Source of the DNA: an uncultured Solirubrobacterales bacterium
GTDB lineage: Bacteria; Actinomycetota; Thermoleophilia; Solirubrobacterales; 70-9
DNA: 64,000 bases
Reading direction: 5' to 3'
NCBI GenBank assembly: GCA_963699225.1
Contig: OY969423.1
Span: forward strand, 2,032,740 to 2,096,739
Both the position numbers and the translations under genes were made by a program. Under the pieces are notes generated by a model. The model did no database searches. It was not told the DNA's origin and worked only from the letters and a program-made list of their open reading frames with translations. This document shows, one piece after another, positions 4,648 through 54,250 of the stretch (position 1 is its first letter; each line of letters begins with the position of its first letter).

Positions 4648-7134
4648 GTGGCGCCTGAGCCAGTGCATTCCGCCTCATCAATTGTGGCTTCGGATCTAAT
4701 TCCGGATCGTGCTCTGCGTGCCGGGGATCCTGATGAATTCGACTACGCCCCTCTTGCAAGTCGGGTTGCAGAGCTTTGCGACGCAGCCGAGACTCCAGTC
4801 AATATCGCTCTCTTCTCTCCTTGGGGCTCGGGTAAGTCGAGCCTCTACTCCCTAATCGAGAGACGGCTGGCTGCACTAGGAGGGCACTCTCGGCTTATCC
4901 GCTACGACGCCTGGCGCTACGGCGGGGATGGACTGCGCCGTAACTTCATCGCCCACGTAGCCCGGGAGTTGCACCTTCCTCACGAGGACCCTCACTACTC
5001 GGAATTCAACCGCGGCCTCTATGAGAATCAGCGACGGGTTTCGCTAACTCTGCCCGGACTTTGGAGTGCACTGCGAAACGCCCGTCTCTGGCCGCTGGTT
5101 GCCTTGGCAGTGTTCCTCGCGGCCGTTGGTGCCCTGCTCGGCGTCGACTCGGTTCTGATCGGCGCTTTGATCTCCACCTTCCTGTTGCTGATCACCGCCC
5201 TGGTCGACGCCGGCAAGGTCGAAATCGAGCAATCCAAGCCCTCCGAGGACGAGGAGTTCTTCTCGCGCTTTACCCGCCTGGTCGAATGGGCGACGGACGA
5301 GAGTGCCCCAGTTCGCGGCGCCCGGGTTCGGGCTGCCGAGCGTTGGGATCGCCTCCGCCAAACCGTGGCCGAGCACGTCGGTCTCTACCGATTGTTGTTT
5401 TGGTGGTCAGAGAAGGTCGAGGCCCGGCCCTATCCGCTGCCCAAGCCAAGGCGCCTGGTGTTCTTCATCGATGAGCTCGACCGCTGCAGTCGCGCCGACA
5501 TCGTCAAGACCCTGAAAGCCCTGCGCACCTTTCTGGACGCAGATCGTTGCGCCTTCATCGTCGCCGCCGATCGTCGTGTGATCGAACAGGCGCTCGGAGA
5601 GGTTGAACAGTCAACCCCATCTGAACCCGAAGTTCCCTACTACTCGAGTGCCGGTGCCTACCTCGACAAGATCTTTCAACACCAGTTGGCCCTTCCGCCG
5701 CTTCAGGGCTCACGCTTGACCAGCTTTGCCGGTGTGCTGGTCGAAAAGCAAATCGCCAGAAGTAAAGATGGGCCTGGCTTTTGGCGTGAGTTGCAGGAGG
5801 CCGGCGAGGGCGACATTCTCGATGACGCTCTCTATGCACTGATCCCCTCTCATGTGCGCAGTCCCCGGCGGGTCAAGGTGCTGCTCAACAACTTCGTAGT
5901 TACGGCCAAGCTCGCAGAAGCGCGCGGCGTTTACGTTCCCGCTCGGGCTCCCGAGGTCGCAAAGCTCGTTGCCCTCCGCACCGAGTTCCCGGTTTTCGCC
6001 GCGGTCCTTTTTCGCGAGCCCCGCCTCGCCAGCTACTGGACTGAGGCCGCGGTTCCTCCCGACCACCGCATTGAACAGGTCCAGAGGTTGATGGCGGAGA
6101 TCGCCGATTCACCTGGCCCCGCTGCCTACATCGACGGTCTCGACCAGACCGGATCAGGGAGCACTTCCGAAGAGCTTTCAACTCGCCATTTCGAAGAGCT
6201 TCGCCGCTACCTCGAGCGCACCGCAGATACCAGCGACCCCGGCCGGGATCTGCTTTATCTAGAGGCGCCGGGGAAGATCTACAACCTCGATCCTGAATTT
6301 GGCGAGCGCCTCGAGCGCGACGCCCCTGATGTGCCGCTCGAGGTGCTTGATTCGCTCTCCGAACAGAACGAGGAGACCAAGCGCAGCGCCGCGCGACTCC
6401 TATCCGACATGGTTCAGACCCTTAGGGGCCCGGAGCGCTCACGGGTGATGACGGTGCTGATGGGTCTCGCCGAGCAGCTCGATCCTCTCGGTACGACCGC
6501 GTGGTATCTCGCCAAGGCGCTGAAGACCTACCGCAGGGCCGAGGAGCTAGACGCCGACCATCTAGTCGGAGCCCTTCGAATCGCCCTTGACGAGGCGCCG
6601 ACGCCGATACCTGGGCGCGAGCTCGTCACTCGGCTCTTCGCCGACCCCCGACTGCTCGAAACGCCCGCCCGGATCGAAAGCGTGGCAAAAATGGCCAGCC
6701 GCCTCTCCGACGCAGAAATCGAACAGCTGTGGACCGCAATCGCGAGCGTCGTCGTGGAGAGTCCTTCAGTTCTAGTGGTGCCTCTGGAAAGGCTCGACGA
6801 AGGGACCGCGCTCGCTCTGATCAATTCCGACCAGATCTGGGGTGCCATACGAGCCGCTGAGGCTGACTACCCCGCTGAGAGGGTTGCTGAGATTTGCGAT
6901 CAGCTGCAACTCGCTGGCCTTTCCGGACCTTCGAAGCCAGAGCTTGCCTTCCGAATCCAGGGCCACCTGCTCGACTGTGAATCGGGGCTTGCTTATCAGG
7001 TGGTGAACCGGTATGCCGACGAGGTCTTCGATGGTCAGGGGGACGACCAGCGGGTCAATGCGCGTGTCCTGCATGCCTGGCGGCACGCCCCGGCTGAGCA
7101 TTGGGAGGAATGGAATGGACGCCTCCGTGTCTGA
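4648..7134 (+). CDS. KAP-family P-loop NTPase with membrane insert (Tmn-like)
   Basis: Walker A SPWGSGKSS (about nt 4816-4839). Two hydrophobic helices, LWPLVALAVFLAAVGALLGV and VLIGALISTFLLLITALV (about 5085-5205), are inserted before Walker B LVFFIDELDRC (about 5455-5487). That insert position is the KAP hallmark. A long helical C-terminal region follows. GTG start. Confidence 0.85.
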   Translation: MAPEPVHSASSIVASDLIPDRALRAGDPDEFDYAPLASRVAELCDAAETPVNIALFSPWGSGKSSLYSLIERRLAALGGHSRLIRYDAWRYGGDGLRRNFIAHVARELHLPHEDPHYSEFNRGLYENQRRVSLTLPGLWSALRNARLWPLVALAVFLAAVGALLGVDSVLIGALISTFLLLITALVDAGKVEIEQSKPSEDEEFFSRFTRLVEWATDESAPVRGARVRAAERWDRLRQTVAEHVGLYRLLFWWSEKVEARPYPLPKPRRLVFFIDELDRCSRADIVKTLKALRTFLDADRCAFIVAADRRVIEQALGEVEQSTPSEPEVPYYSSAGAYLDKIFQHQLALPPLQGSRLTSFAGVLVEKQIARSKDGPGFWRELQEAGEGDILDDALYALIPSHVRSPRRVKVLLNNFVVTAKLAEARGVYVPARAPEVAKLVALRTEFPVFAAVLFREPRLASYWTEAAVPPDHRIEQVQRLMAEIADSPGPAAYIDGLDQTGSGSTSEELSTRHFEELRRYLERTADTSDPGRDLLYLEAPGKIYNLDPEFGERLERDAPDVPLEVLDSLSEQNEETKRSAARLLSDMVQTLRGPERSRVMTVLMGLAEQLDPLGTTAWYLAKALKTYRRAEELDADHLVGALRIALDEAPTPIPGRELVTRLFADPRLLETPARIESVAKMASRLSDAEIEQLWTAIASVVVESPSVLVVPLERLDEGTALALINSDQIWGAIRAAEADYPAERVAEICDQLQLAGLSGPSKPELAFRIQGHLLDCESGLAYQVVNRYADEVFDGQGDDQRVNARVLHAWRHAPAEHWEEWNGRLRV

Positions 7135-11573: not shown

Positions 11574-13250
11574 GTGTTGAATGAGGCAGTGCGTCTCGTC
11601 CGATCGCTCGCGGGGGCTGTGCTTTTGCCGATCGTCCTTGCGGTCGCGCTCTTCGCTGCACCCGCCGCTGCGGCGCCGCTGCCGGTGCTGGTGGGCCAAG
11701 TCGGCAGCGGGTCCAACACAGGGTTTGCCACCTCGGCGGGCGGGTGCATCTGCACCGTGGCGCAGATGCACGAGGCCAGTCCGGCCAGCAAGTCCTACGT
11801 GTTCCCCTACGACGGGGTGATCGTGTCCAGCGGCACCTACGTTGGTAGCTCCGTCGAAGCCGGCGACACAGACACCGTGCAGGTCCAGACGGTGCATAAG
11901 ACCGGCGCGACGACGGGCACCGTCGTCAGCGAGGGCACCGCCCACCACCTCCTCGGGTTGCCAACGAGCACCGTGGATCGGTTCTACGACAGGTTGCCGG
12001 CTCACGCGGGCGACGTCCTTGCCGCGCGCTTCCACGACAGTGGCTTCATTGAATCGACGCCCTTCTTCTTCAAGGCCACCGCCGGCGGAGATGAAGTCGA
12101 GGTGTCCACCCCCACGGCAGCCGGCGGCAGCCTCTCGGGATCCTCACTGGTGGCCGAACGCCGGGTCAACCTCGAAGCCGTGCTCGAGCCCGACGAAGAC
12201 CACGACGGCTACGGGGACGCATCGCAGGACCTCTGCCCGGGCTCGCCGATAGCGACCTCGGCCTGCTCGGGCTTGCTCTTCGGCACTGCCCTGGAGGGCG
12301 AACGCTCGGTTCCGCCAGCCGCCTGCTCTCCCTCCTGTCTATACGTGCAGACCGCCCTCGGCGGCGTCTCCACGGCGACATCCTCACCCGGGGTGATCGT
12401 TCGCTGGCGGGTGCTGAACGGCAGCAGCGGCGCCTACCGAATCAATGTGCTGACCGATAACCCCGGAGGGAGCGGCGGGGCATTCCACGCCTACCACGTG
12501 CTCGGCTTCAGCGAAACCGGGACCGTGACCGCGCCCACCAACTCGGCGTTCTCGCAGATCTCGGGCTTTCCGACCCGGATGCCGATCCCGGCTGGCGCCT
12601 ATGTCGGCCTGACGGTGCCGGGTGGCAGTGTCCCCGGCTTCCAATCGAGCGTCGGCGGCCAGGCGAAATATTCGCGCACGGAAGCGCCATTCCCCGGCAT
12701 CACCGGTGTCGTCGGCGAATCCCACAACGGCGCGATCCTCTACGACGCCGACATCGAGCCCGACGTCGATGGCGACGGTTACGGCGACGTCACTCAGGAC
12801 TCGTGCCCGACCTCAGCCTCGATCCACGAAGGACCGTGCCCGGCGACCGGCGCCGGAAAAGCTCCAATCGTGTCGACGCATGGCGACCGGGCTCACCTTC
12901 CGAAGATCGGGTCGCTGGCGGTAAAGCCGAAGAGCTTCCACGCCAAGCCGCTCGGACGGGTCACGGCGGGAGGCAAATGGGGGACGAAGGTGAAGCTCTC
13001 GCTCTCCTCAGCGGCGACCGTGACGCTCGCGATCGAAGCTCGACAGGGCCGGCGCTTCCACGTCGTCACCCGGCTGACCAAGAAAGCAGCCGCGGGGCGC
13101 ACTTCGGTCGCCTTCAGTGGCCAGTACCGCCAAGCCGGCAAGCTCACCGACCTTCAGCCCGGCACCTACCGCCTCAGCGCGAGCGCCAAGACCAGCGCGG
13201 GCACCGGACCGGTCAAGCGCACGACCTTCACCGTCCTTCCCCCGGCCTGA
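11574..13250 (+). CDS. secreted protein with two beta-rich modules, each ending in an EPDxDxDGYGDxxQDxCP motif, plus a C-terminal Ig-like tail
   Basis: Signal-like LLPIVLAVALFAAPAAAAP. Motifs LEPDEDHDGYGDASQDLCP and IEPDVDGDGYGDVTQDSCP. The tail reads ...KVKLSLSSAATVTLAIEAR...GTYRLSASAKT. Paralogous to 32607-33629. Several starts are possible (GTG 11574, TTG 11577, GTG 11589). Confidence 0.7.
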   Translation: MLNEAVRLVRSLAGAVLLPIVLAVALFAAPAAAAPLPVLVGQVGSGSNTGFATSAGGCICTVAQMHEASPASKSYVFPYDGVIVSSGTYVGSSVEAGDTDTVQVQTVHKTGATTGTVVSEGTAHHLLGLPTSTVDRFYDRLPAHAGDVLAARFHDSGFIESTPFFFKATAGGDEVEVSTPTAAGGSLSGSSLVAERRVNLEAVLEPDEDHDGYGDASQDLCPGSPIATSACSGLLFGTALEGERSVPPAACSPSCLYVQTALGGVSTATSSPGVIVRWRVLNGSSGAYRINVLTDNPGGSGGAFHAYHVLGFSETGTVTAPTNSAFSQISGFPTRMPIPAGAYVGLTVPGGSVPGFQSSVGGQAKYSRTEAPFPGITGVVGESHNGAILYDADIEPDVDGDGYGDVTQDSCPTSASIHEGPCPATGAGKAPIVSTHGDRAHLPKIGSLAVKPKSFHAKPLGRVTAGGKWGTKVKLSLSSAATVTLAIEARQGRRFHVVTRLTKKAAAGRTSVAFSGQYRQAGKLTDLQPGTYRLSASAKTSAGTGPVKRTTFTVLPPA

Positions 13251-13472: not shown

Positions 13473-13763
13473 ATGAGCGAAACCAAGACGATCGAGGCCG
13501 AGACCACACTGCGCCGCACCGAGCGCGCGGTGCACGGCGACCGGCCCGACGAGACCGTGTTGCTCGACGTCGATGCCGGCACCGCGGTGCGGCTCAACTC
13601 GACCGGCGCCTGGATCTGGGAGCAGCTCGAGCAGCCGCGCCAGGTCAGCGAGCTGGCCAGTGGCCTGGCCCAGCGCTTCGAAATCGACGAGGGGCGGGCG
13701 CTCGGCGACGTCGTTGCCTTCGCCCGCGAGATGGCGCGGCGCGACCTGCTCGCCGCCAGCTAG
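13473..13763 (+). CDS. PqqD-family protein (stand-alone RiPP recognition element-like)
   Basis: MSETKTIEAE...VLLDVDAGTAVRLNSTGAWIWEQLEQPRQVSELASGLAQRFEIDEGRALGDVVAFAREMARRDLL fits the PqqD/RRE pattern (LN..A..IW..L.....V.EL...L...). Confidence 0.75.
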   Translation: MSETKTIEAETTLRRTERAVHGDRPDETVLLDVDAGTAVRLNSTGAWIWEQLEQPRQVSELASGLAQRFEIDEGRALGDVVAFAREMARRDLLAAS

Positions 13764-14752
13764 CCGGCCAGCGCCCGCTCGGGCAGGTTCTGGTCGGCGT
13801 GGTAACTCGAACGCACCAGCGGACCTGAGGCGACCGACTCGAAGCCGAGGTCGTAGGCCGCCTTCTCCAGCGCCGCGAACTCCTCCGGGTGCCAGTAGCG
13901 CACCACCGGCAGGTGGTTTTCGGTCGGGCGCAGGTACTGGCCTACGGTCAGCACCTGGACGCGATGCTCACGCAGCAGGCCGAAGGTCTCGACCATCTCC
14001 TCGAAGCTCTCGCCCAGCCCGACCATCAGCCCCGACTTGGTGACGACATCGGCGCCGCCCATCTCCTTGGCCATCTTCAGCACCCGCGCCGAGCGCAGGA
14101 ATTTGGAGCCGCGCCGCGCCACTGGGTAGAGCCGGGGCACGGTCTCGACGTTGTGGTTGAAGACGTCGGGCTTCTCGTGGATCACCTTGGCCAGCGGCAT
14201 CTCCTGGCCGCGGAAGTCGGGGGTGAGGATCTCGACCTTGCAGCCGGGCGCCTGCATGCGGATCGAGCGGATCACGCCGACGAAGGCGCTCGCACCGTAG
14301 TCGGGCAGGTCGTCGCGGTCGACCGAGGTGACGACGGCGTGGCGCAGTCCCATCTTCTTCACTTGGTTGGCGACCCGCAGCGGCTCCAGCGGGTCGTTCC
14401 AGGTCGGCACGCCCGTCTTCACGTTGCAGAAGCCGCAGCGGCGGGTGCAGACGTCGCCGAGGATCATGAAGGTCGCCGTGCCGCGCTCCCAGCACTCGCC
14501 GACGTTGGGGCAGTTGGCCTCCTCGCAGACCGTGTGCAGGTTGTCGCTGCCGATCATCGCCTTAAGCCGGCGGTAGGTCGGCCCGCCCGGAGCCGGCACC
14601 TTCAGCCAGGGCGGCTTGCGGGCGCGGCGGAAGGGAACGGTGCCGTCGCTCTCGGCCGCGATCCCGCCCGGCTTGGCACGGGAGCGCGTTACGTGGACTC
14701 GCTCCTCCGTGGGAGCGTTGCGCTCCGCGGGCTCTGTCGTCGACTCGCTCAT
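13760..14752 (-). CDS. lipA: lipoyl synthase
   Basis: CEEANCPNVGECW and CTRRCGFCNV (radical SAM CxxxCxxC plus the auxiliary cluster motif). 330 aa. Overlaps lipB by 4 nt. Confidence 0.95.
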   Translation of the reverse strand: MSESTTEPAERNAPTEERVHVTRSRAKPGGIAAESDGTVPFRRARKPPWLKVPAPGGPTYRRLKAMIGSDNLHTVCEEANCPNVGECWERGTATFMILGDVCTRRCGFCNVKTGVPTWNDPLEPLRVANQVKKMGLRHAVVTSVDRDDLPDYGASAFVGVIRSIRMQAPGCKVEILTPDFRGQEMPLAKVIHEKPDVFNHNVETVPRLYPVARRGSKFLRSARVLKMAKEMGGADVVTKSGLMVGLGESFEEMVETFGLLREHRVQVLTVGQYLRPTENHLPVVRYWHPEEFAALEKAAYDLGFESVASGPLVRSSYHADQNLPERALAG

Positions 14753-17233: not shown

Positions 17234-17872
17234 ATGAAGAAGCTCGCTCCTGCGATTCTCGCTGCCCTGGCCCTGCTCGTCGCGCTCTTGGCCACCGGCC
17301 CCGGCGCGACGGCCGCGCCGACGAGCTGCCCCAGCTTCCGCGTCCTCCACGACGACCGCATTGGTCCCGCCGTTCTGCCAGCCGGCAGCTACACGATCAC
17401 GATCGATTCGACCTCGGGACTTGCCTGCGGAGCGGCGGCGAAACTCTTCACCCGCTTTCTCGAGGACTACGACGGGGTTCTTCCCAGGCCATGGAGAGTG
17501 AGCGCCGAAGGGAGCGGCAAGGCGTCGTTCAAGCCCGGCGACGCTGCCGGCTTCTCGGTCTCGCGCAGCAGCGGAAGTGGCGAAGGGAGCTCTTTGCTCG
17601 GTGCTCTCTGCAATGGCACCTTCACGGTCAACGCCAGCACCCGGGTCGGCCCGCTGTTCTTCCCCAAGGCCGGCTACCTGCTCTACATCCCGCCGCGATC
17701 GGGGATCAGCTGCCGCCGCGCCTCCATCCTCTTCACCCGCTTCCTCGGTGCCGGCGGCGCCTTGCCGCAACCCTGGCGAACGATTGCCCAGACGGCGACC
17801 TTCTACAAGCCGGCCAACCCGACGCGCTCGGCTTTCCGCGTTGAGCCGCTGAGCGGCGCCGGTCCCCGCTAG
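17234..17872 (+). CDS. secreted protein with an internal two-fold repeat
   Basis: MKKLAPAILAALALLVALLATGPGATAAP is a signal peptide. Repeat 1 is SCPSFRVLHDDRIGPAVLPAGSYTITIDS..CGAAAKLFTRFLEDYDGVLPRPWRV. Repeat 2 is LCNGTFTVNASTRVGPLFFPKAGYLLYIPP..SCRRASILFTRFLGAGGALPQPWRT. Confidence 0.65.
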   Translation: MKKLAPAILAALALLVALLATGPGATAAPTSCPSFRVLHDDRIGPAVLPAGSYTITIDSTSGLACGAAAKLFTRFLEDYDGVLPRPWRVSAEGSGKASFKPGDAAGFSVSRSSGSGEGSSLLGALCNGTFTVNASTRVGPLFFPKAGYLLYIPPRSGISCRRASILFTRFLGAGGALPQPWRTIAQTATFYKPANPTRSAFRVEPLSGAGPR

Positions 17873-19182
17873 AGCGCCAGCGAGAGCGGCTCTTCGAGCA
17901 GCGAGCGCACGCGGGCGAGGAATTCGGCGGCGGGGGCGCCGTAGAGGATGCGGTGGTCGCAGGCGAGGTTGACCCGCATCAGGTGCGCGGTGGTGGTCTG
18001 GCCGTCGCGAACGACGGGGCGCTCGCTGATCGCGCCGACGGCGAGGATTGCCGCCTGCGGAGGGTTGATCACGGCGGCGAAGCTGTCGATGCCGAACATC
18101 CCCAGGTTGGAGACGGTGAAGGTCGCCCCCGAGAGCTCCGGCGGCGTGATCTGCCCGTCCCGCACCCGCTGTGCCAACGCCCGCGAATCGCCGGCGATCT
18201 GCCGCAGGTTCTTCTGGTCGGCATCGAAGATCGTCGGCACCACGAGCGCATCCCGAGCCGCCACCGCCACCCCGATGTTCACCCGCGAATAGAGCTCGAA
18301 GCGCCCATCCCGATAAGCCCCATTGGCCCGAGGATGATCCCGCAGCGCCAACGCACAAGCCTTGACCACCATGTCGTTGAACGAAGGAACGACGTCGCCT
18401 TCTTTGGCTCCGGCTTTGATTTGGGACCGAGCCGCAACCAACCGACTCATATCGATCTCTGCCTCCAAATAGAAGTGCGGCGCCGTCGCCTTCGACTCCG
18501 ACATCCGCCTGGCGACCGTCGACTGCAGCTTCGACGGGTCTTCGTAGCTGACGGTCCCCTTGGCTGTTTCGGGAGCAGGAGCTGCTGGTGCGGAAGTGCT
18601 GGCTGGGGACGGAGCGGTCGCAGGTTCAAATCCTGTCTCCCCGGTAGGTGTGCCACCAGCTTTCTCGACATCGGCCTTGACGATCCGACCACCTGGCCCG
18701 GAGCCCTGAAGCTGTGCCAAGTCGAGACCCTTCTCCTTGGCAATCCGTCGAGCCACCGGTGACGCCTTCGGGCGCTCGCCGCCTCCGTTGGAAGCCGGTG
18801 GTGCATTGATCGCAGCTTCCGCGGGTGGCGCCGTAGGGGGTACCGCCCCTGAGGAAGCTTTAGCTACCGGAGGGGGCGGTGGGTCCCCTGCGGCGACAGG
18901 ACCCGCGGCAGTGCGGTCGGTCCCTCCACCGTCCCGATCGGACGCATCTGCATCCCCGACTGTCGCAATGGGGGTTCCGATCGCAACGGTCTCACCCTCC
19001 CGGACCAGAATCTCGCTAAGCGTCCCCGCCACGTCGCTTTCGTAAGCCATATTCGCCTTGTCGGTCTCGATCTCGACGAGCTCATCTCCCACGGCCACCT
19101 CGTCCCCAACCTGCTTCAGCCACTGCAGGATCGTTCCCTCCTCCATCGAGTCGGACAGCCTCGGCATCACGATCTCGGCCAT
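17869..19182 (-). CDS. dihydrolipoamide acyltransferase (E2 of a 2-oxoacid dehydrogenase complex)
   Basis: N-terminal lipoyl domain (VEIETDKANMAYE). E3-binding segment (ASPVARRIAKEKGLDL). Catalytic domain with the DHRILYG motif. Confidence 0.92.
   Translation of the reverse strand: MAEIVMPRLSDSMEEGTILQWLKQVGDEVAVGDELVEIETDKANMAYESDVAGTLSEILVREGETVAIGTPIATVGDADASDRDGGGTDRTAAGPVAAGDPPPPPVAKASSGAVPPTAPPAEAAINAPPASNGGGERPKASPVARRIAKEKGLDLAQLQGSGPGGRIVKADVEKAGGTPTGETGFEPATAPSPASTSAPAAPAPETAKGTVSYEDPSKLQSTVARRMSESKATAPHFYLEAEIDMSRLVAARSQIKAGAKEGDVVPSFNDMVVKACALALRDHPRANGAYRDGRFELYSRVNIGVAVAARDALVVPTIFDADQKNLRQIAGDSRALAQRVRDGQITPPELSGATFTVSNLGMFGIDSFAAVINPPQAAILAVGAISERPVVRDGQTTTAHLMRVNLACDHRILYGAPAAEFLARVRSLLEEPLSLAL
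18819..18908 (-). repeat. family-2 90-nt imperfect palindromic repeat, translated in frame within the E2 linker
   Basis: 81/90 nt identical to 54119-54208 (hand alignment). Terminal inverted repeat CCGCGGGT...ACCCGCGG. Encodes [29 protein letters not shown]. Confidence 0.8.
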
Positions 19183-23899: not shown

Positions 23900-24673
23900 T
23901 CAGGCACCGGGCGCCTCCTCGCCGAGGGGGGCGAAGGCGGCGCGCAGCGCTTCGGCGGCAGCCGCGGGATCGGTGGCGTCGCGGACCGCGCGCACGACAC
24001 AGAGCCGCCGCGCCCCGGCCTCGACCACCTGGGAGACGTTCGAGGCGTCGATGCCGCCGATCGCGAAGAACGGGTGGGGAGCGTTGGCGGCGGCGTGGGA
24101 GATCAGCTCCAGCCCCACCGCGGGTCGGCCCTGCTTCGTCGGCGTCTCCCAGATCGGCCCCACGCTGATGTAGTCCGGTGACGCGCCTGACCGGCGCATA
24201 TCTGCGTCCTCGGTCGCTTGCGTGCGGAGCACGCCGCGCTCCCTGTGTCCTTGATCTGCTTGGTCAGGCGCGTCACCGGAAGCCGCAATTTGCTCTTTTG
24301 AATGCGTGGATAGACCGACTATGGCGTCGGGGCCAAGGAGCGCTCGTGCTTCAGCGACGGTCGTGTCGTCCTGTCCCAAATGGACCCCGTCGGCGTCGCA
24401 GGCGCGCGCCAGGTCGGGGTCGTCGTTGACGATGAAGAGGGCGCTGTTGTTGTCGCAGAGGCGGCGGAAGGTCTGCGCGGCGAGCTCGATCTCGCGCCGT
24501 GGCAAAGACTTCTCGCGCAGCTGCACGATGTCGACACCGCCGCGCAAAGCCGCCGCCAGTAGCGGCTCGGGATCCTCGCCGCGGGGGCGCGCCTCGCAAC
24601 AGAGATAGAGCCGCGCCGTGCGCAGCCGCTCGCGTCGCAGCGGTCCCTCGGCCTCGGGTGGTGCCAGGCTCAT
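23900..24673 (-). CDS. thiE: thiamine-phosphate synthase carrying an in-frame ~29-aa repeat-derived insert
   Basis: ATG 24673. LYLCCEARP...GGVDIVQLREK...GVHLGQDD...IVGLSTHS...PDYISVGPIWETPTKQ...FFAIGGI are ThiE motifs. The insert is encoded by 24174-24280. Confidence 0.85.
   Translation of the reverse strand: MSLAPPEAEGPLRRERLRTARLYLCCEARPRGEDPEPLLAAALRGGVDIVQLREKSLPRREIELAAQTFRRLCDNNSALFIVNDDPDLARACDADGVHLGQDDTTVAEARALLGPDAIVGLSTHSKEQIAASGDAPDQADQGHRERGVLRTQATEDADMRRSGASPDYISVGPIWETPTKQGRPAVGLELISHAAANAPHPFFAIGGIDASNVSQVVEAGARRLCVVRAVRDATDPAAAAEALRAAFAPLGEEAPGA
24174..24280 (-). repeat. family-1 element: 69-nt conserved core (SD+ATG) closed by a perfect 19-bp inverted repeat, inside thiE
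   Basis: Arms at 24174-24192 and 24262-24280 are perfectly complementary. The core 24194-24262 is 62/69 identical to 30942-31010 (hand count). Confidence 0.85.
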
Positions 24674-24704: not shown

Positions 24705-24806
24705 CGGGTAGCATCGGAAGGGTACGGGAGCCGAAGAGGCTGAGAGGGTGGCAACGAGGCCACCGACCGTCTGAACCTGATCCGGGTAATGCCGGCGGAG
24801 GCAATG
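24705..24806 (+). promoter_or_regulatory. TPP (THI-box) riboswitch upstream of thiO
   Basis: ACGGGAGCC...GGCUGAGAGGGUGGC...ACCGUCUGAACCUGAUCCGGGUAAUGCCGGCGGAGG matches the conserved THI-element core (CUGAGA, ACCUGAUC.GG.UAAU.CC.GCG.AGG). The GGAGG at its 3' end is the thiO SD. The boundaries are approximate. Confidence 0.85.
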
Positions 24807-24807
24807 C

Positions 24808-26924
<2,117 letters not shown>

Positions 26925-28714: not shown

Positions 28715-30331
28715 CTAGTGGCGGAAGTGCCGGTGCTTGGTGAAGACCATCGTCACGCCGGCCTCCTCGCAGGCCGCAATTACCTCGGCGTCGCGCTTCG
28801 AGCCGCCCGGCTGGATCACCGCGGTAGAGCCGGCCTGCAGAGCTAGCTCGGGCCCGTCGGCGAAGGGGAAGAAGGCGTCTGAGGCGACGGCGGAGTCCGC
28901 CAGCAGGGCGTCCGCATCCTCGCCGCGAGCGTCGCGGCACTTCTCGACTGCGAGGCGGACCGAGTCGACGCGGCTCATCTGGCCGGCGCCGATGCCGAGC
29001 GTGGCGCCGTCCTTGGCGATCACGATCGCGTTGGAGCGGACGTGGCGGACGACGGTCCAGGCGAAGCACATGTCGTCCCACTGCTGATCGCCCGGCTGTG
29101 ACTTGGTGACAACCTCCATGATCTCGCGCGGCTCGGGGTCGCCGTCGCGGTCCTGGATCAAGAGGCCGCCCATCACCCGTTTGACGTCGCGTTCGCCCGG
29201 TTCGCGCTGGCGGCGCTCCTCCTCGCAGAGGATGCGGATCGCCTCCTTCTGCTGCAGGACAGCGAGGGCGCCGTGCTCGTAGTCGGGCGCGATCAGCACC
29301 TCGACGAAGTTCTCGTGCAGTCGTTTGGCGAGCTCCTCGGAGACCGGCCGGTTGAAGGCGATGACGCCACCGAAGGCCGACATCGGGTCGCAGGCCAGCG
29401 CCTTCTCGTAGGCCTCAAGCGCCTCCTTGCCGATCGCCACCCCGCAGGGGTTGTTGTGCTTGACGATCGTGCAGGCGGGCTGCTCGAAGTCGTCAACCAG
29501 GCGACGGGCCGAGTCGAGGTCGAGCACGTTGTTGAAGGAGAGGGCGCGGCCGTGCAGCTTGGCGACGCGCGAGAGCACGTGGCTGCGCACGCCGGCTTCG
29601 GAGTAAAGCGCGGCCCGCTGGTGCGGGTTCTCGCCGTAGGAGAGGTCGAGCACCTTCTCGTAAGCGACGGCGAGGTGTTCGGGGTAGTCCTCGTACTCGG
29701 TCGAGAACCAGCGGCTGATCGCGGCGTCGTAGCGCGCGGTCTGGGCAAAGGCCTCGTTGGCGAGCCAGTGCCGCGTCGTCGCTGAGACCTCGCCGCCGGA
29801 CTCCTCCAGCTCAGCCAGCACCGCGTCGTAGGACTCGGGCTTGACCACGACCGCGACCCCGTTGTGATTCTTGGCCGCGGCGCGGATCATCGTCGGCCCG
29901 CCGATGTCGATGTTCTCGACCACAACGCCTGGCTCGACGTCCTGGATCGCGACGGTCTGCTCGAAGGGGTAGAGGTTGACGCAGACCAGGTCGATCGGCA
30001 CGATCGCCTCGCGTTCGAGCGTGGCCATGTGCTCGGGGTCGTCGCGGCGGGCGAGCAGCGCCGCGTGCAGCCGCGGGTGCAGGGTCTTGACCCGGCCGCC
30101 GAGGATCTCTTCCTGGCCGGTGAACTCGGCGACGTCGGTCACCTCGAGCCCAGCCTCGCGCAGCGCTGCCGCGGTGCCCCCGGTGGAGAGGATCTCAACC
30201 CCGAGGGCGGCCAGGCCGCGGGCGAAGTCGGCGACCCCGGTCTTGTCGGATACCGAGACGAGCGCCCGGCGCACCCTGATCGCGCCGTCGTTGACGGTCT
30301 CGGATCGGGTGTCTGCGGCGGCCTCAGTCAT
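28715..30331 (-). CDS. purH: bifunctional AICAR formyltransferase / IMP cyclohydrolase
   Basis: RRALVSVSDKTG...ILSTGGTA...GGRVKTLHP...IVKHNNPCGVA...VIQPGGSKRD are PurH motifs. 538 aa. Confidence 0.95.
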   Translation of the reverse strand: MTEAAADTRSETVNDGAIRVRRALVSVSDKTGVADFARGLAALGVEILSTGGTAAALREAGLEVTDVAEFTGQEEILGGRVKTLHPRLHAALLARRDDPEHMATLEREAIVPIDLVCVNLYPFEQTVAIQDVEPGVVVENIDIGGPTMIRAAAKNHNGVAVVVKPESYDAVLAELEESGGEVSATTRHWLANEAFAQTARYDAAISRWFSTEYEDYPEHLAVAYEKVLDLSYGENPHQRAALYSEAGVRSHVLSRVAKLHGRALSFNNVLDLDSARRLVDDFEQPACTIVKHNNPCGVAIGKEALEAYEKALACDPMSAFGGVIAFNRPVSEELAKRLHENFVEVLIAPDYEHGALAVLQQKEAIRILCEEERRQREPGERDVKRVMGGLLIQDRDGDPEPREIMEVVTKSQPGDQQWDDMCFAWTVVRHVRSNAIVIAKDGATLGIGAGQMSRVDSVRLAVEKCRDARGEDADALLADSAVASDAFFPFADGPELALQAGSTAVIQPGGSKRDAEVIAACEEAGVTMVFTKHRHFRH

Positions 30332-30947
30332 CGACTACGACCCGGCGCGGGTCGTCAGCGTCGATCCTAACCTTGCCCGCCGCGATCATGCGGATCGCCT
30401 CCGAGTAGAGCTGGTGCTCGACGGTGTGGATCGCCAGCTCGAGCGCCTCGCGGTCGCGATCGGGCGGCACGTCGACCTCGCGCTGCAGGATCGTCGGCCC
30501 GGTGTCGACGCCCTCGTCGACGAAGTGGACGGTGACGCCGGTGACGTTGGCGCCCGCCGCCAGCGCCTGTCCGATCGCGTCGAGGCCGGGGAAGGCGGGC
30601 AGCAGGGCGGGGTGGACGTTGACGACACGGTTGCGGAAGCGCCCGACGAAGGCCGGGCTGAGCAGCTGCATGTAACCGGCGAGGACGATCAGATCGGCGC
30701 CCCGCTCCTCGACCCAGTCGGCCATTGCGGCGTCGCGCTCGGCCCGATCGGCGAAGTCCTCGCGGGGGAAGAGCCCGACCGCGATCCGCGCCGCCCGGGC
30801 CCGTTCGATCGCCGGCGCCCCGGGCTTGTCGGAGCCGACCCCGACCACCTCGATCCCCTCGCGCATGTGCAGTCGGTCGAGGATCGCCTGCAGATTCGAT
30901 CCGGTCCCGCTGGCCAGGACCACCAGGCGGAATGTGGCGCTACGCAT
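30324..30947 (-). CDS. purN: phosphoribosylglycinamide formyltransferase
   Basis: ATG 30947 gives MRSATFRLVVLASGTGSNLQAILD...NVHPALLPAFPG...VHFVDEGVDTGP. The SD and ATG lie inside the family-1 repeat core. Confidence 0.9.
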   Translation of the reverse strand: MRSATFRLVVLASGTGSNLQAILDRLHMREGIEVVGVGSDKPGAPAIERARAARIAVGLFPREDFADRAERDAAMADWVEERGADLIVLAGYMQLLSPAFVGRFRNRVVNVHPALLPAFPGLDAIGQALAAGANVTGVTVHFVDEGVDTGPTILQREVDVPPDRDREALELAIHTVEHQLYSEAIRMIAAGKVRIDADDPRRVVVDD

Positions 30948-31026
30948 CTCGGCGTCCTCGGTCGCTCGCGTGCAGAGCACGCCACGCTCCCTGCGTCCTT
31001 GATCTGCTTGACCACATTCCGCCTGG
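30923..31026 (-). repeat. family-1 element copy filling the purF-purN spacer (core 30942-31010, arms 30923-30937 / 31012-31026)
   Basis: The perfect 15-bp arms, CCAGGCGGAATGTGG / CCACATTCCGCCTGG, differ in sequence from the thiE copy. The core is 62/69 identical to the thiE copy. Confidence 0.85.
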
Positions 31027-31034
31027 GAGTGAGG

Positions 31035-32483
31035 TCATTGACCCACTGCGGGAACGACTGCAACATCCTCCAACGCAAACTTTCCATTCGCGTCTTCGGG
31101 ATCGCCGAGCGGGTAGCGGCCGCTGAAGCAGGCATCGCAGTGGTCCTCGGGTGGAGTGCCGATCGCCTCGTAGACGCCGTCCATCGAGAGGTAGGCGAGC
31201 GAGTCGGCGTCGAGCTCGTCGGCGATTTCCTGGATCGAGCGCTTGTGGGCGATCATCTCCTCGCGGGTCGACATGTCGACGCCGTAGTGGCAGGGGTTGC
31301 GGATCGGCGGCGCCGAGATCCGCAGGTGGACCTCGCGGGCGCCGGCGTCGCGCAGCATGCCGACGATCTGGCGGGTCGTGTTGCCGCGCACGATCGAGTC
31401 GTCGACGACGACGATGCGCTGGCCGGAGACGATCTCGGGCAGCGGGTTGAACTTCAGCCGCAGGCCGTGCTTGCGCAGCTCCTGGCCGGGCTGGATGAAG
31501 GTCCGCGCCACGTAGCGGTTCTTGATCAGGCCGTCGTCGCGGGGCAGCCCCGAGGCGCGGGCGAAGCCGGCGGCGGCTGGGTTGCCGGAGTCGGGCACCG
31601 AGATCACCAGGTCGGCCTCGACCGGCGACTCGCGATGGAGGATCTCGCCCATCCGGCCGCGCACCTGCTGCAGCACTTTGCCCTCGAGCCGGCTGTCGGG
31701 GCGGGAGAAGTAGATGTGCTCGAAGACGCACATCGCCGGCCGCTCGGCCTTGACCACCTGGCGCGTCTCCAGCCCGCGCTCGGTTAGCGAGACCATCTCG
31801 CCGGGGTGCACTTCGCGCATCAGCTCGGCGCCGATGATGTCGAAGGCGCAGCTCTCCGAGGCGACGACGAAGCGGTCGTCGAGGCGGCCGAGCGAGAGCG
31901 GCCGCACCCCGTGCGGGTCGCGGAAGGCGACGATCGCGCGCTTGGTCATCACCACGGTCGAGTAGGCGCCCTCCAACCGCGGCATCACGTCCGTGACCGC
32001 GTCCTCGATCAACTTGCCGTCATGGGAGGAAAGCAGCGCCGCGATGATCTCCGAGTCCGAGGTGCCGCGGAAGGCGATGCCGCGCTCCTTCAGCTCGCCC
32101 CAGAGCTCGACCGCGTTGGTCAGGTTGCCGTTGTGGGCGAGCGCCAGCTCGCGGCCGTCGTCGCGCCAGACCGGCTGCGCGTTCTCCCAGGAGCCGCCGC
32201 CGGTGGTCGAATAGCGCACGTGGCCGATCGCCATGTCGCCCTCCAGCGCCTTCAGCTTCTCCTCGTCGAAGACCTGCGAGACCAGGCCCGAGTCGCGCAT
32301 CGTGGTGATGTGGCCGCCAACGCAGGTGGCGATCCCGGCCGACTCCTGGCCGCGGTGCTGCAGTGCGTAGAGGCTGAAGTAGGCCAGGCGCGAGACGTCG
32401 TGCCCGGGTGCGTATACGCCGAACACCCCGCATTCCTCGCGCGGGCTGTCGCGGTCTATGAACTGCCCCTGGGGCGGAGTCAA
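31035..32483 (-). CDS. purF: amidophosphoribosyltransferase
   Basis: ECGVFGVYAP (N-terminal nucleophile Cys after a short propeptide). SESCAFD. The PRPP loop VVVDDSIVRGNTT. TTG 32483 follows GAGGAAAG. The ORF is open to 32552, so the start is uncertain. Confidence 0.9.
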   Translation of the reverse strand: MTPPQGQFIDRDSPREECGVFGVYAPGHDVSRLAYFSLYALQHRGQESAGIATCVGGHITTMRDSGLVSQVFDEEKLKALEGDMAIGHVRYSTTGGGSWENAQPVWRDDGRELALAHNGNLTNAVELWGELKERGIAFRGTSDSEIIAALLSSHDGKLIEDAVTDVMPRLEGAYSTVVMTKRAIVAFRDPHGVRPLSLGRLDDRFVVASESCAFDIIGAELMREVHPGEMVSLTERGLETRQVVKAERPAMCVFEHIYFSRPDSRLEGKVLQQVRGRMGEILHRESPVEADLVISVPDSGNPAAAGFARASGLPRDDGLIKNRYVARTFIQPGQELRKHGLRLKFNPLPEIVSGQRIVVVDDSIVRGNTTRQIVGMLRDAGAREVHLRISAPPIRNPCHYGVDMSTREEMIAHKRSIQEIADELDADSLAYLSMDGVYEAIGTPPEDHCDACFSGRYPLGDPEDANGKFALEDVAVVPAVGQ

Positions 32484-32606
32484 GCGCGCTTTCCTCGCGG
32501 TTGGGGAAGGACGTGACGCGCAGGCGGACTGCCTACCCCGGCAGGGTAGCAACGGCGGGCGGCCGGTAAGCCGCGACAGAAAGCTCGCGATTTGCGGCCG
32601 TTCCGG

Positions 32607-33629
32607 CTAAGAGGTCCTGGTGGAGTGGACCCGGTCGCGGCCGTGGAGGCGGATCGTGATCGTGTGATCGGTCACCCTGCCGGCGAGGTCGGTTGTCCGC
32701 GCCGTGATCGTTCCCTTCACCACTTGTTTCGGCGAGGTATCGCCGAGGTGGCGAATCACAGATTTGGGCAGCTTGACGTTGTAGGGCGTGACTTCCCCCG
32801 GTTTCACCAGCGTCGTGCCACCGCTGAGACCGACGATTACCCCGGTGCTGATGTGGTCGCCGGGTTTGTCGGTCGTCTTCGAGGCCAGGGCGCCGCCCTT
32901 GTGGCGTGGTTTCCAGCCAACCTGGCCGAAGATCTGGACCGAGGAAGCTTCGCTGGCGCTGACCAGGACGAGGACCGAGCGCTTGAGCACGATCGGGAAG
33001 GTGTCGAGCAAGATCGTCGGGCAGGGTCCCTGGTAGGCGGCACTCTGCGGGCAGCCGTCCTGGCTCTCGTCGCCGTAGCCATCTCCGTCGCGGTCGGGCT
33101 CGATCACGGCGACTAGCGGCACGCGTTCGTCCACGCCTGCATGAAAGAGATGCGTGGAGCCGACGCCGACACTGCCATTGAAGGACCAGGTGTGGTCGGC
33201 GGTGTTGCCAGTAGCGCACCTCAGTGCGCTTTCTTCACCTACCGCGACTGGCCCGAACCGGTCGCCTGCTCGGACCGGGATCCGCGTGGAGAAGACATTC
33301 GAGCCGGGTTTGACGCTCTCCTCATTGCTCTCGCCGATTACCTGAAAAGTGCCTGCCTCGCCCGTTGGTCGAAAGGCCGCCATCACCTCCGGGACCGGTG
33401 TGGGGAGAGCGGAATTGACCTTCCAGGCCGTCACAACGCCGCTGGCCGGTGCTGACAGCGGCAGTGGACCTTCCGAGGAACGCGCCTCCGGGACCAGCGT
33501 GAACGGGCCGCTCGCGGCGTTACCCGCGCATTCGTCGCCGACTTCGGTCGCTGCTGAGACAGGGGACGCACCGACCAGCGCTATGGCCAGGAGCATTCCC
33601 ACAAGAGCAACTGTGCCCAACGATCGCAT
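32607..33629 (-). CDS. secreted protein, paralog of 11574-13250 (one beta-rich module plus the EPDRDGDGYGDESQDGCP motif plus an Ig-like tail)
   Basis: ATG 33629 follows GGAGGGA. Signal peptide MRSLGTVALVGMLLAIALVGASPVSAA. The motif IEPDRDGDGYGDESQDGCPQSAAYQGPCP parallels the 11574 product. Confidence 0.7.
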   Translation of the reverse strand: MRSLGTVALVGMLLAIALVGASPVSAATEVGDECAGNAASGPFTLVPEARSSEGPLPLSAPASGVVTAWKVNSALPTPVPEVMAAFRPTGEAGTFQVIGESNEESVKPGSNVFSTRIPVRAGDRFGPVAVGEESALRCATGNTADHTWSFNGSVGVGSTHLFHAGVDERVPLVAVIEPDRDGDGYGDESQDGCPQSAAYQGPCPTILLDTFPIVLKRSVLVLVSASEASSVQIFGQVGWKPRHKGGALASKTTDKPGDHISTGVIVGLSGGTTLVKPGEVTPYNVKLPKSVIRHLGDTSPKQVVKGTITARTTDLAGRVTDHTITIRLHGRDRVHSTRTS

Positions 33630-53621: not shown

Positions 53622-54250
53622 CTACTCGCTCACCACCACACGCGCAGGCCGGATCAACTGCTCATCGAGCCGGTACCCCTTCTGCATCACCTCGACGACC
53701 GTCCCCGACTCGACCCCAACCGAGGCCACGGTCGAGAGCGCTTCGTGCAGCGTTGGATCGAACTTCTCCCCCTCCGGATCCAAGGTCTCGACCCCGTTCC
53801 GCGTCAGCGTCTCCCGCAGCCTGCGGAAGACCAGCAGAACCCCATGAGAGAGCCCATCCTCGGAATCCCCCTCCGGATCAAGACCCGCAGCCTGAATCGC
53901 CCGCTCGAGATCATCGAGAACCACCACAACCTCCCGAATCACCTCAGCCTTCCCGCGCCCCGACGCCGCCTGAACCTCCGCCGTCATCCGCTTGCGAAAG
54001 TTCTCGAAGTCAGCCTTGGTCCGCTTAGCGAGGTCGAGATACTCGTCCCGCTCCCGCTGGGCGTCCGCCAGCAGCGCGTCGAGATCGGTCTCAACGGCGT
54101 CCGCCTGTGGCGCGTCTCCCGCGGGTGGCGGTGTAGGGGGCACCGCCCCTGAGGACGCTTTAGCGACCGGAGGGGGTGGTGGGTTCCCTGCACCGACAGG
54201 ACCCGCGGGCCGATGCTCCTCAGTCCCGGACTCATGTCCCTGATCTGGCC

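Follow-up and report, generated by a model that had tools for sequence, protein, structure and literature searches.

A dispersed hairpin repeat that has probably replaced the start of purN and closed its stem with an inverted copy of the target

In the 64,000-nucleotide (nt) stretch of contig OY969423.1 analysed here (the window), a perfect hairpin occupies positions 30923-31026 on the minus strand, at the junction between purF and purN, and a twin of it lies inside thiE. A preliminary description of the window had pointed to a conserved core with copy-specific complementary arms in these two hairpins, and had taken this pattern as a sign either of a selected hairpin in RNA or single-stranded DNA or of an insertion mechanism that copies its target in inverted orientation. 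The locus thus raises the question of what kind of element this hairpin is, how its closing stem came about and what its arrival meant for purN. The analysis described below indicates that the hairpin is probably a copy of a dispersed, lineage-specific hairpin repeat, the stem of which was closed by an inverted copy of the target and the insertion of which replaced the purN start. Both hairpins proved to be real, with perfect stems of 15 and 19 base pairs (bp) that are unrelated in sequence; the two copies have the same orientation to their host gene, and the peptides quoted for them were correct. Family loci and junctions from relatives are numbered L001-L131, and W denotes the window in comparisons.

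The hairpin at the purF-purN junction

Comparison with relatives that lack the element, which had been proposed in the preliminary description, revealed the form of the junction without the hairpin. In L129, the PurN of which is 98% identical to that of the window, and in L128, purF ends with ..CCC GCC AGC CGC TAG, a spacer of 10 nt (cttcccggc[a/g]) follows, and purN starts with GTG AGC GAC GGC TTC AAG CTC GTT GTC; there is no hairpin in either. Between shared anchors, the purF-purN span amounts to 124 nt in the filled and 41 nt in the empty form, i.e., a net difference of 83 nt. The C-terminus of PurF reads ..VVPAVGQ* in the window and ..VVPASR* in the empty alleles. Filled PurN alleles (86-100% identity) begin with MRSATFRLVV, or with VLCTRATEDAEMRSATFRL if the in-frame GTG at 30980 is called, and empty alleles with V/M-SDGFKLVV. 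The segment F-R/K-L-V-V-L-A-S-G aligns gap-free between filled and empty alleles, and FRL was found in other relatives. Since F-R/K-L-V-V aligns without a gap, the 3' arm of the closing stem is read as retained purN sequence and the 5' arm as the copy. The 5' arm CCAGGCGGAATGTGG, for which no clear counterpart was seen in the empty junctions, would then be an inverted copy of purN codons 4-9.

The comparison largely shows that the element, together with a new 5' arm, replaced the 10-nt spacer and the own start of purN (V/M-SDGFKL). Both the Shine-Dalgarno (SD) sequence GAGGA and the AUG of purN are donated by the 3' strand of the element, the start being predicted from the sequence. Translation from this ATG yields MRSATFRLVVLASG; some gene callers choose the GTG at 30980 instead, which gives a PurN of 218 amino acids (aa). 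Filled and empty purN alleles are interleaved in identity, which points to one old insertion with flanks that have since recombined, not to repeated precise excision.

The two arms of the purN copy pair perfectly (15/15), and a G.U pair (31011/30938) extends the stem to 16 bp. RNA folding predicted -61.4 kcal/mol (z = -4.3), and 0 of 200 shuffled sequences folded as well. GAGGA was predicted to be mostly unpaired inside the internal loop, in line with the earlier placement of the SD sequence in a loop. The AUG had been placed there as well, but its U and G were predicted to be paired in the inner 7-bp helix (unpaired probability <=0.17). Since a strong predicted hairpin buries the AUG, it is plausible that initiation at purN depends on unwinding by ribosomes terminating on purF; the hairpin starts 8 nt after the purF stop. 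No terminator-like site (G+C-rich hairpin with a U/T run) was found on either strand in 30700-31300.

Two more filled junctions were obtained from metagenomes, a window-like one (L131) and a more diverged one (L130), and GAGGA is kept in both. In L130, the purF stop TAG lies in the stem base (C-TAG-GCGGAATGTGGC ... GCCACGTTCCGCC-TAG). Between W and L130, one pair of the purN stem is changed on both sides, from C-G to U-A, the 3' change being synonymous for Leu in purN. The cores of the two differ at 6 of 31 positions in the 5' half and at 2 of 40 in the 3' half, which contains GAGGA and ATG; this contrast is as expected if the 3' half is constrained as the initiation region of purN. The 18-nt difference between the window and L130 forms lies in purF coding sequence.

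The distance between the purF TGA and the purN ATG is exactly 87 nt (31034-30948), stop-free and in the same frame, as had been reported. Its equality with the length of the thiE insert, to which weight had been given, is coincidental because the net difference from the empty junctions is 83 nt. purF and purN are in one frame with a single stop between them in both forms (87 nt in the window, 75 nt in L130), and read-through of the purF stop would yield a PurF-linker-PurN fusion. The shared frame, for which the chance is about 1 in 3, may be fortuitous and is not evidence of read-through. The coordinates of all features are collected in Table 1.

Table 1. Features of the purF-purN junction, the sister copy in thiE and two empty sites in the window.
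Feature	Position	Strand	Remarks
purF (amidophosphoribosyltransferase) open reading frame	31035..32552	-	Pfam GATase/Pribosyltran matches on orthologues
purF stop TGA	31037-31035	-	
Spacer between purF stop and hairpin base, 8 nt (cctcactc)	31027..31034	-	
Closing-stem 5' arm, 15 nt, CCAGGCGGAATGTGG	31026-31012	-	
Element proper, 74 nt	30938..31011	-	Covariance model match 30944-31007, 91 bits
Inner covarying helix	31007-31001 with 30950-30944	-	
Conserved 5' strand CAAGGACGCAGGGAGC	31001-30986	-	
Apical hairpin GCGTGC-TCT-GCACGC	30982-30968	-	
Conserved 3' strand GAGCGACCGAGGACGCC	30967-30951	-	
SD-like GAGGA, 7 nt upstream of purN AUG	30959-30955	-	Part of the conserved 3' strand
purN ATG	30947-30945	-	From the 3' strand of the inner helix (GAGATGC)
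Closing-stem 3' arm, CCACATTCCGCCTGG	30937-30923	-	purN codons 4-9 (A-T-F-R-L-V)
purN (glycinamide ribonucleotide (GAR) formyltransferase), 207 aa from element-derived ATG	30324..30947	-	
thiE copy, 107-nt hairpin	24174..24280	-	Arms 24280-24262 and 24192-24174, core 24261-24193
Empty site, lipA/pqqD-like convergent overlapping stops (GGC TAG CTG)	13740..13790	-	Filled in L001, L050, L125
Empty site, 3' end of E2 acyltransferase gene, overlapping stops (..CTC TAG CGG..)	17849..17888	-	Filled in L128; interval between flank matches 17889-18088 and 17649-17848, not a base-by-base junction

A dispersed family with a conserved centre

A blastn search of the element against the window returned a single other copy, at 24195-24262 inside thiE, with 62 of 68 positions identical (91.2%), in close agreement with the 62 of 69 counted earlier. 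A covariance model applied at every window position likewise found exactly two copies (91 and 85 bits), the next score being 14 bits. The preliminary description had considered that these two might be the only ones. This does not hold, as at least 120 loci were obtained when one genome per species was scanned for a core pattern of 22 bases. The 84 loci listed of these at least 120 all come from Solirubrobacterales, Solirubrobacteraceae, Conexibacteraceae, Thermoleophilia or metagenome-assembled genomes (MAGs) assigned to Actinomycetes/Actinomycetota only, and ThiE homologues put the window among Solirubrobacterales-type MAGs. Among the matches listed, the family has so far been found only in Solirubrobacterales-type MAGs. 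Viral contigs (by the scan) as well as plasmids and phages (by BLAST) gave no family match, and Rfam gave none at the element, either at the gathering threshold or at E <= 10. In 769 kb of flanking DNA, the covariance model detected about five further copies missed by the pattern, i.e., about one per 100-150 kb, from which the copy number is roughly estimated at a few tens per genome. When in-frame copies were sought by their peptide, with a doubled query of 48 aa, the 27 candidates were for the most part tiny, spurious open reading frames and did not include the known ThiE and PurN positives. In the literature on Solirubrobacterales and on inverted target duplications by bacterial MITEs (miniature inverted-repeat transposable elements), no relevant prior description was found.

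Across about 120 copies, a centre of about 50 nt is near-invariant (CAAGGACGC-AGGGAGCGYGGCGTGCTCNGCACG-CGAGCGACCGAGGACGC), although ascertainment of the loci by an exact core pattern inflates its apparent conservation. It consists of two purine-rich strands, CAAGGACGCAGGGAG and CGACYGAGGACGCC, both containing AGGACGC, which form the opposing sides of a large internal loop, capped by a small apical hairpin with the consensus GCGTGC-NNN-GCACGC. In rarer subfamilies the apex is quite different (e.g., GCCGAATAGC-AGC-GCTATTTGGC) and both purine-rich strands are kept. The internal loop is thus the conserved module, since its strands persist in subfamilies with different apices. In the 7-bp helix outside the loop, six of seven pairs covary, with pair types such as AU/CG/GC and UA/GC/CG/AU. 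Its covariation score was 0.299, as compared to 0.076 in shuffles (0/500 as high) and at most 0.074 when the partners were slid out of register; the alignment had been filtered for at least 5/7 pairs, which inflates the paired percentage and leaves the variety of pair types unaffected. Over its full extent, the hairpin measures 106 nt in the median (100-119 nt in 77/103 copies), and the stem outside the conserved centre has a median of 23 bp. Irregular copies were also seen: a small unrelated palindrome, CCGATTAGTCGATCGCATCTGATCGACAATCGG, is nested inside the copy at L083 (element near 6928-6990), L092 has an insertion in the 3' half, L102 contains two cores in tandem, and the 3' arm is duplicated in L036.

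The family is found mainly at gene ends. With the core written in sense, 70 of the 85 copies for which this could be determined have a gene of the opposite strand on their 3' side, the stop codon of which falls within the 3' arm at distances that are sharply peaked. On the 5' side, genes of both orientations occur, and convergent ones often have their stop in the 5' arm. A position between divergent genes was seen for five copies only. Where the genes are co-directional, the element runs antisense to them in 28 cases and sense in 6-7; the sense orientation of the purN and thiE copies is therefore the minority orientation. The ends of the element often supply the stop codon of a neighbour, as at L112 and at lipA-pqqD, where TAG gives way to the TGA of CTGACC. 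The neighbouring genes are diverse and have no special link to pur or thi genes, and the family is not a pur/thi regulator. At L023 (2793-2880) and L096, GTCGRCTGA occurs three times (two direct, one inverted) across the convergent genes and the arm, and changes in step (G to A in both direct copies), which a simple model does not explain.

The sister copy in thiE has a predicted RNA fold of -68.2 kcal/mol (z = -7.1). It is an in-frame, stop-free insertion in a conserved enzyme with insert-free alleles among relatives: ThiE alleles have 257-259 aa with the insert and 228 aa without it, the window copy adds a net 29 codons in frame to the 228-aa form, and canonical ThiE spacing is that of the latter. 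Readings of the thiE and purF contexts as similar to a selenocysteine insertion sequence (SECIS) or as ribosome bypass were discarded; they are unneeded, as the insert is in frame and free of stops, and the typical copy is antisense and has convergent genes after it. In L002-L004 (10394-10419), a coreless thiE allele encoding a ThiE of 230 aa has 11 bp per arm and a 4-nt loop (TCCGGTGACGC-AGGC-GCGTCACCGGA); it looks like a within-hairpin deletion of a window-like filled allele. A thiamine pyrophosphate (TPP) riboswitch (24714-24820, plus strand, 59.5 bits) precedes thiO-like/thiS-G plus-strand genes that diverge from thiE, and no riboswitch was found in the window on the strand of thiE. In relatives, integrative elements adjoin the thi locus and take the place there of the purF-purN-purH block: L126 (4229-7517) has a relaxase together with a serine recombinase, and in L002-L004 (12-3314) a tyrosine integrase and a DUF3987 protein are present in L003 and L004 and the DUF3987 protein only in L002.

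Origin of the closing stem and alternative explanations

The combination of a conserved core with copy-specific complementary arms, noted earlier for two copies, holds throughout the family. In 123 copies, the complementarity between the arms of the same copy had a median local score of 13, as compared to 5.5 for arms of different loci, and 81 of the 123 exceeded the 99th percentile of this cross-locus control. Arms of non-orthologous loci are unrelated (median arm-to-arm score of 5, the chance level). Consequently, conserved terminal inverted repeats are absent, and a role of the arms as guides homing to matching targets was rejected on the same ground. Direct repeats at the hairpin boundaries, as expected for direct target duplication, were no commoner than in the cross-locus control.

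The origin of the arms was traced in alleles with and without the element, of which about 12 further pairs were found in relatives beyond thiE and purN. At L072, the empty allele reads ..GAC TAG ccga CTA ACGCTTGCCGGCGC.., and the filled allele at L112 reads ..GAC TAG CGCCGGCGAGCGC-TGACC-core-GGTCA-GCGCTTGCCGGCGC.. The 13-nt 5' arm of L112 is missing from L072 and is the reverse complement of the retained C-terminal codons; the stop codon shifts from TAG to the TGA of the element. L049 vs. L035 and lipA-pqqD follow the same pattern, with one arm old and the other new. At L087, seven new complementary bases (AGCCCCA) were added to a 6-bp palindrome already present in L048. The retained arms match the empty alleles codon by codon: LLAAS (pqqD), DRAGKR (L112), QFVLPP (L049) and F-R/K-L-V-V (purN). 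In thiE, the insert (87-93 nt) equals the core plus one arm with both flanks kept, by which the possibility that an arm was overwritten instead of a new one being added was rejected. Thus, five comparisons (L112/L072, L049/L035, lipA-pqqD, L087/L048 and purN) support the copying of the target in inverted orientation that had been suggested for the two window copies. At several loci it is shown that one arm was present locally beforehand and that the other arrived with the element as an inverted copy, and the same is likely to apply to the rest.

A possible course of events is as follows. At insertion, the element would bring its centre and a short inner stem, and the outer stem would then be completed by an inverted copy of the adjacent target, leaving one arm old and one new. 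Fold-back or template-switch DNA synthesis, with the hairpin of the element as primer, could produce the copy: after copying this hairpin, a nascent strand would fold back and use its own upstream flank as template. If the target and the inner stem of the donor shared microhomology, this would account for the inherited inner ends, such as GCGCC at thiE, GGTC at the E2 site and TGGCC at L072/L112. Later, the arms might be kept complementary by the same templated correction or by selection on pairing. The polarity fits an inverted target duplication, as it is usually the end of the gene running into the element that is retained as an arm. A more specific version is put forward tentatively and with considerable doubt: a non-coding element of about 75 nt without conventional transposase signatures would insert beside stop codons and build a stem of about 23 bp by inverted target duplication, and its AGGACGC loop would be a putative handle for a protein or for stalling a polymerase.

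Several observations weigh against stems made wholly in this way, to which the two effects of locus selection and alignment filtering given above have to be added. At purN, the nearest empty alleles have F-K-L, not F-R-L, so that the ancestral sequence was not observed, and the 5' arm loosely resembles the empty spacer; the direction of copying there thus rests on an argument at the protein level. Inner ends are common to several loci within subfamilies (TGACC/GGTCA, TGGCC/GGCCA, GAAAACC/GGTTTGC), and the thiE arm is similar to arms at the unrelated loci L032 and L106. Since subfamily ends are shared, part of the stem travels with the element, and the arms are not wholly target-derived. The case that the arms do not derive from the target, raised in the preliminary description as a possible refutation, was borne out for the inner ends, which are inherited, and not for the outer arm, which appears to be copied from the target at several loci. 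The narrow distribution of hairpin lengths is not explained by simple fold-back synthesis. At L031 the polarity is opposite, the 5' arm being retained instead of the 3' arm. In addition, the empty L084 has a 7-8 bp hairpin (TCGACTG-CTTA-CAGATCGA) exactly where L098 holds the element, and palindromes of 5-8 bp occur at some empty sites, also at L048 (GTGACG..CGTCAC) and L112 (CTAGG..CCTAG); insertion into such small hairpins would account for part of some stems.

Among the alternatives, it is possible, although we do not favour it, that the hairpin is a structured RNA or single-stranded DNA element maintained by the host, with mobility secondary, the internal loop being a putative binding site and the stem having only to pair. 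Candidate roles are those of a protein-binding hairpin, a protector of mRNA 3' ends, a site of processing or an obstacle to antisense transcription. In orthologous pairs with both flanks homologous, identity amounts to 88-100% (most 92-100%) over the 26 core bases not covered by the search pattern, and mostly to 70-88% (up to 96% in the closest) in the coding flanks of the same pairs; the core is thus more conserved than neighbouring coding DNA, as this alternative would predict. The stems diverge faster than the flanks: arms of L009 and L068 are about 61% identical, and the stems of L018 and L019 differ by 6 changes in 32 nt vs. 4% flank divergence. Double changes that compensate each other occur frequently, at three pairs in L011/L051 and, in thiE, at two pairs when W is compared with L054, so that the arms covary like the inner helix. 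Outer-arm mismatches are G.U-compatible on the core-sense strand in 74 cases vs. 32 on the other strand (p = 6e-5), and further out in 55 vs. 28. These patterns indicate a need for pairing on one strand, be it as RNA or as single-stranded DNA. The selected hairpin proposed earlier thus gained support from covariation, from compensatory changes including that at purN (W vs. L130) and from the excess of G.U-compatible mismatches, although templated arm correction or strand-biased mutation could contribute to the same pattern and mimic selection.

Maintenance by the host would also agree with the constant stem of about 23 bp, with the location at gene ends, as in repetitive extragenic palindromic sequences (REPs; PMC3733652), and with the absence from the window of a tail of decayed copies below the two high-scoring ones. 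However, presence/absence polymorphism among close relatives and independent insertions at one site show that the element spreads. L100 and L112 have different subfamilies at one intergenic site, which is empty in L072, and insertion there must therefore have happened more than once. Moreover, many orthologous genes manage without the element. The G.U-favoured core-sense strand is antisense to the gene whose stop the element usually abuts and so disagrees with the expected transcript. Host maintenance and mobility complement each other.

Insertion into the loops of hairpins or palindromes (e.g., terminator-like stems, overlapping convergent stops) that gene ends already possessed, so that the stem predates the core, was judged unlikely. 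The hairpin of L084 at the L098 site and the palindromes of L048 and L112 are what it would predict, convergent TGA..TCA stops are naturally complementary, and REPs inserted within small palindromes have been documented (PMC3733652). However, the prior repeats comprise only 4-8 bp vs. 13-25 bp in the final stems, no hairpin was found at the empty purF-purN, thiE, lipA-pqqD, E2, L072 and L035 sites, and the extra arm nucleotides at L087 (AGCCCCA) and L112 (13 nt) are new. Within the inverted-copy explanation, small palindromes at stop codons may be favoured targets.

A somewhat smaller probability still was given to a conventional MITE- or REP-type unit with terminal inverted repeats of its own that is mobile as the complete hairpin, in which case the likeness between arm and gene would be coincidental or the gene end would have been overwritten. 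The inner arms shared within subfamilies and the similarity of the thiE arm to L032 and L106 could be read in this way, as could the frequent supply of stop codons by the element ends, known from GTAG REPs (PMC3733652). The outer arms of non-orthologous loci are unrelated, however, direct target duplications were not found, and several pairs show codon-by-codon orthology between the retained arm and the empty allele. A dedicated cis-regulatory RNA (riboswitch or attenuator) for purine and thiamine genes, for which the sense position of both window copies in biosynthetic genes and the SD and AUG in the purN copy might speak, was effectively refuted by the census, with at least 120 copies at unrelated genes of diverse kinds, mostly antisense and after the stop of the abutting gene; many relatives have the same genes without the element, Rfam gave no match, and the thi operon has a TPP riboswitch of its own.

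Relation to known repeats and further repeats in the window

The family was compared with known classes of small repeats. Rickettsia palindromic elements (RPEs) are palindromic repeats that lie in frame within conserved protein genes and are read as an extra peptide. The thiE copy is similar to them in being an open insertion of 29-31 codons alongside empty alleles, but the RPEs belong to another lineage and have another sequence, and in the present family copies within genes are the exception and copies at gene ends the rule; the purN copy, being intergenic and 5'-terminal, falls outside this comparison. MITEs such as Correia/NEMIS and ERIC are, like this family, non-coding units of about 100-150 nt that form long hairpins, differ between strains and can provide neighbouring genes with regulatory signals. 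They have conserved terminal inverted repeats and direct target-site duplications, both of which were looked for in the family and not found.

In quasi-palindrome template-switch mutagenesis (the Ripley model), a polymerase copies one arm of an imperfect repeat onto the other and so perfects palindromes. Such a process would explain both the inverted target copy and the paired double changes of the arms, if it operates here. To our knowledge, it has been described for point and cluster mutations, not for a dispersed element that builds a stem of 13-19 nt at each site. Insertion sequences (ISs) that target REPs or hairpin loops (IS1397, IS110-type) resemble the family in inserting at palindromes near gene ends, but they are full, transposase-encoding ISs, whereas the unit here is non-coding and about 75 nt long, and most empty sites have no substantial hairpin.

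With the REP, BIME and REPIN repeats, the family shares short, dispersed, hairpin-forming units and a gene-end context. REPs lie downstream of open reading frames, between convergent or co-directional genes, with few inside open reading frames, are probably transcribed and often supply stop codons by their ends; RPEs are mentioned in the same source (PMC3733652). REPs comprise 20-40 nt and conserve the stem sequence and a GTAG/CGTC tag, whereas the present repeat has about 106 nt, a conserved centre, a closing stem unique to each locus and no GTAG/CGTC tag. Overall, the family resembles REPs, MITEs and, with regard to thiE, RPEs, but lacks the defining features of MITEs and REPs. As in a structured motif, its pairs are kept by compensatory changes and its unpaired internal-loop strands are invariant.

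REPs, MITEs, RPEs and other small hairpin repeats are common, and this family is an unusually readable case, since its travelling portion, the conserved centre, can be distinguished from the stem, which is made at the site, and many filled and empty alleles are available in public metagenomes. One copy lies in frame inside the enzyme ThiE, and another serves as SD sequence and start codon of purN, an essential biosynthetic gene. If inverted target copying holds true, it would add an insertion mode outside the standard schemes of transposition and offer a concrete way in which selfish hairpins could give rise to structures at gene ends, new stops and new starts in genomes of high G+C content.

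Two further sets of repeats were observed in the window. A second, unrelated hairpin repeat family is represented by two 98-nt copies (18811-18908 and 54111-54208), which are 88% identical and fold with about -80 kcal/mol on the plus strand; several differences between them are compensatory. In addition, three related stretches of 63-64 nt were found at 12177-12239, 12746-12809 and 33048-33111, the first two each inverted with respect to the third, with 75-77% complementarity. These stretches at 12.2, 12.8 and 33.05 kb may represent a third repeat family or a shared gene segment.

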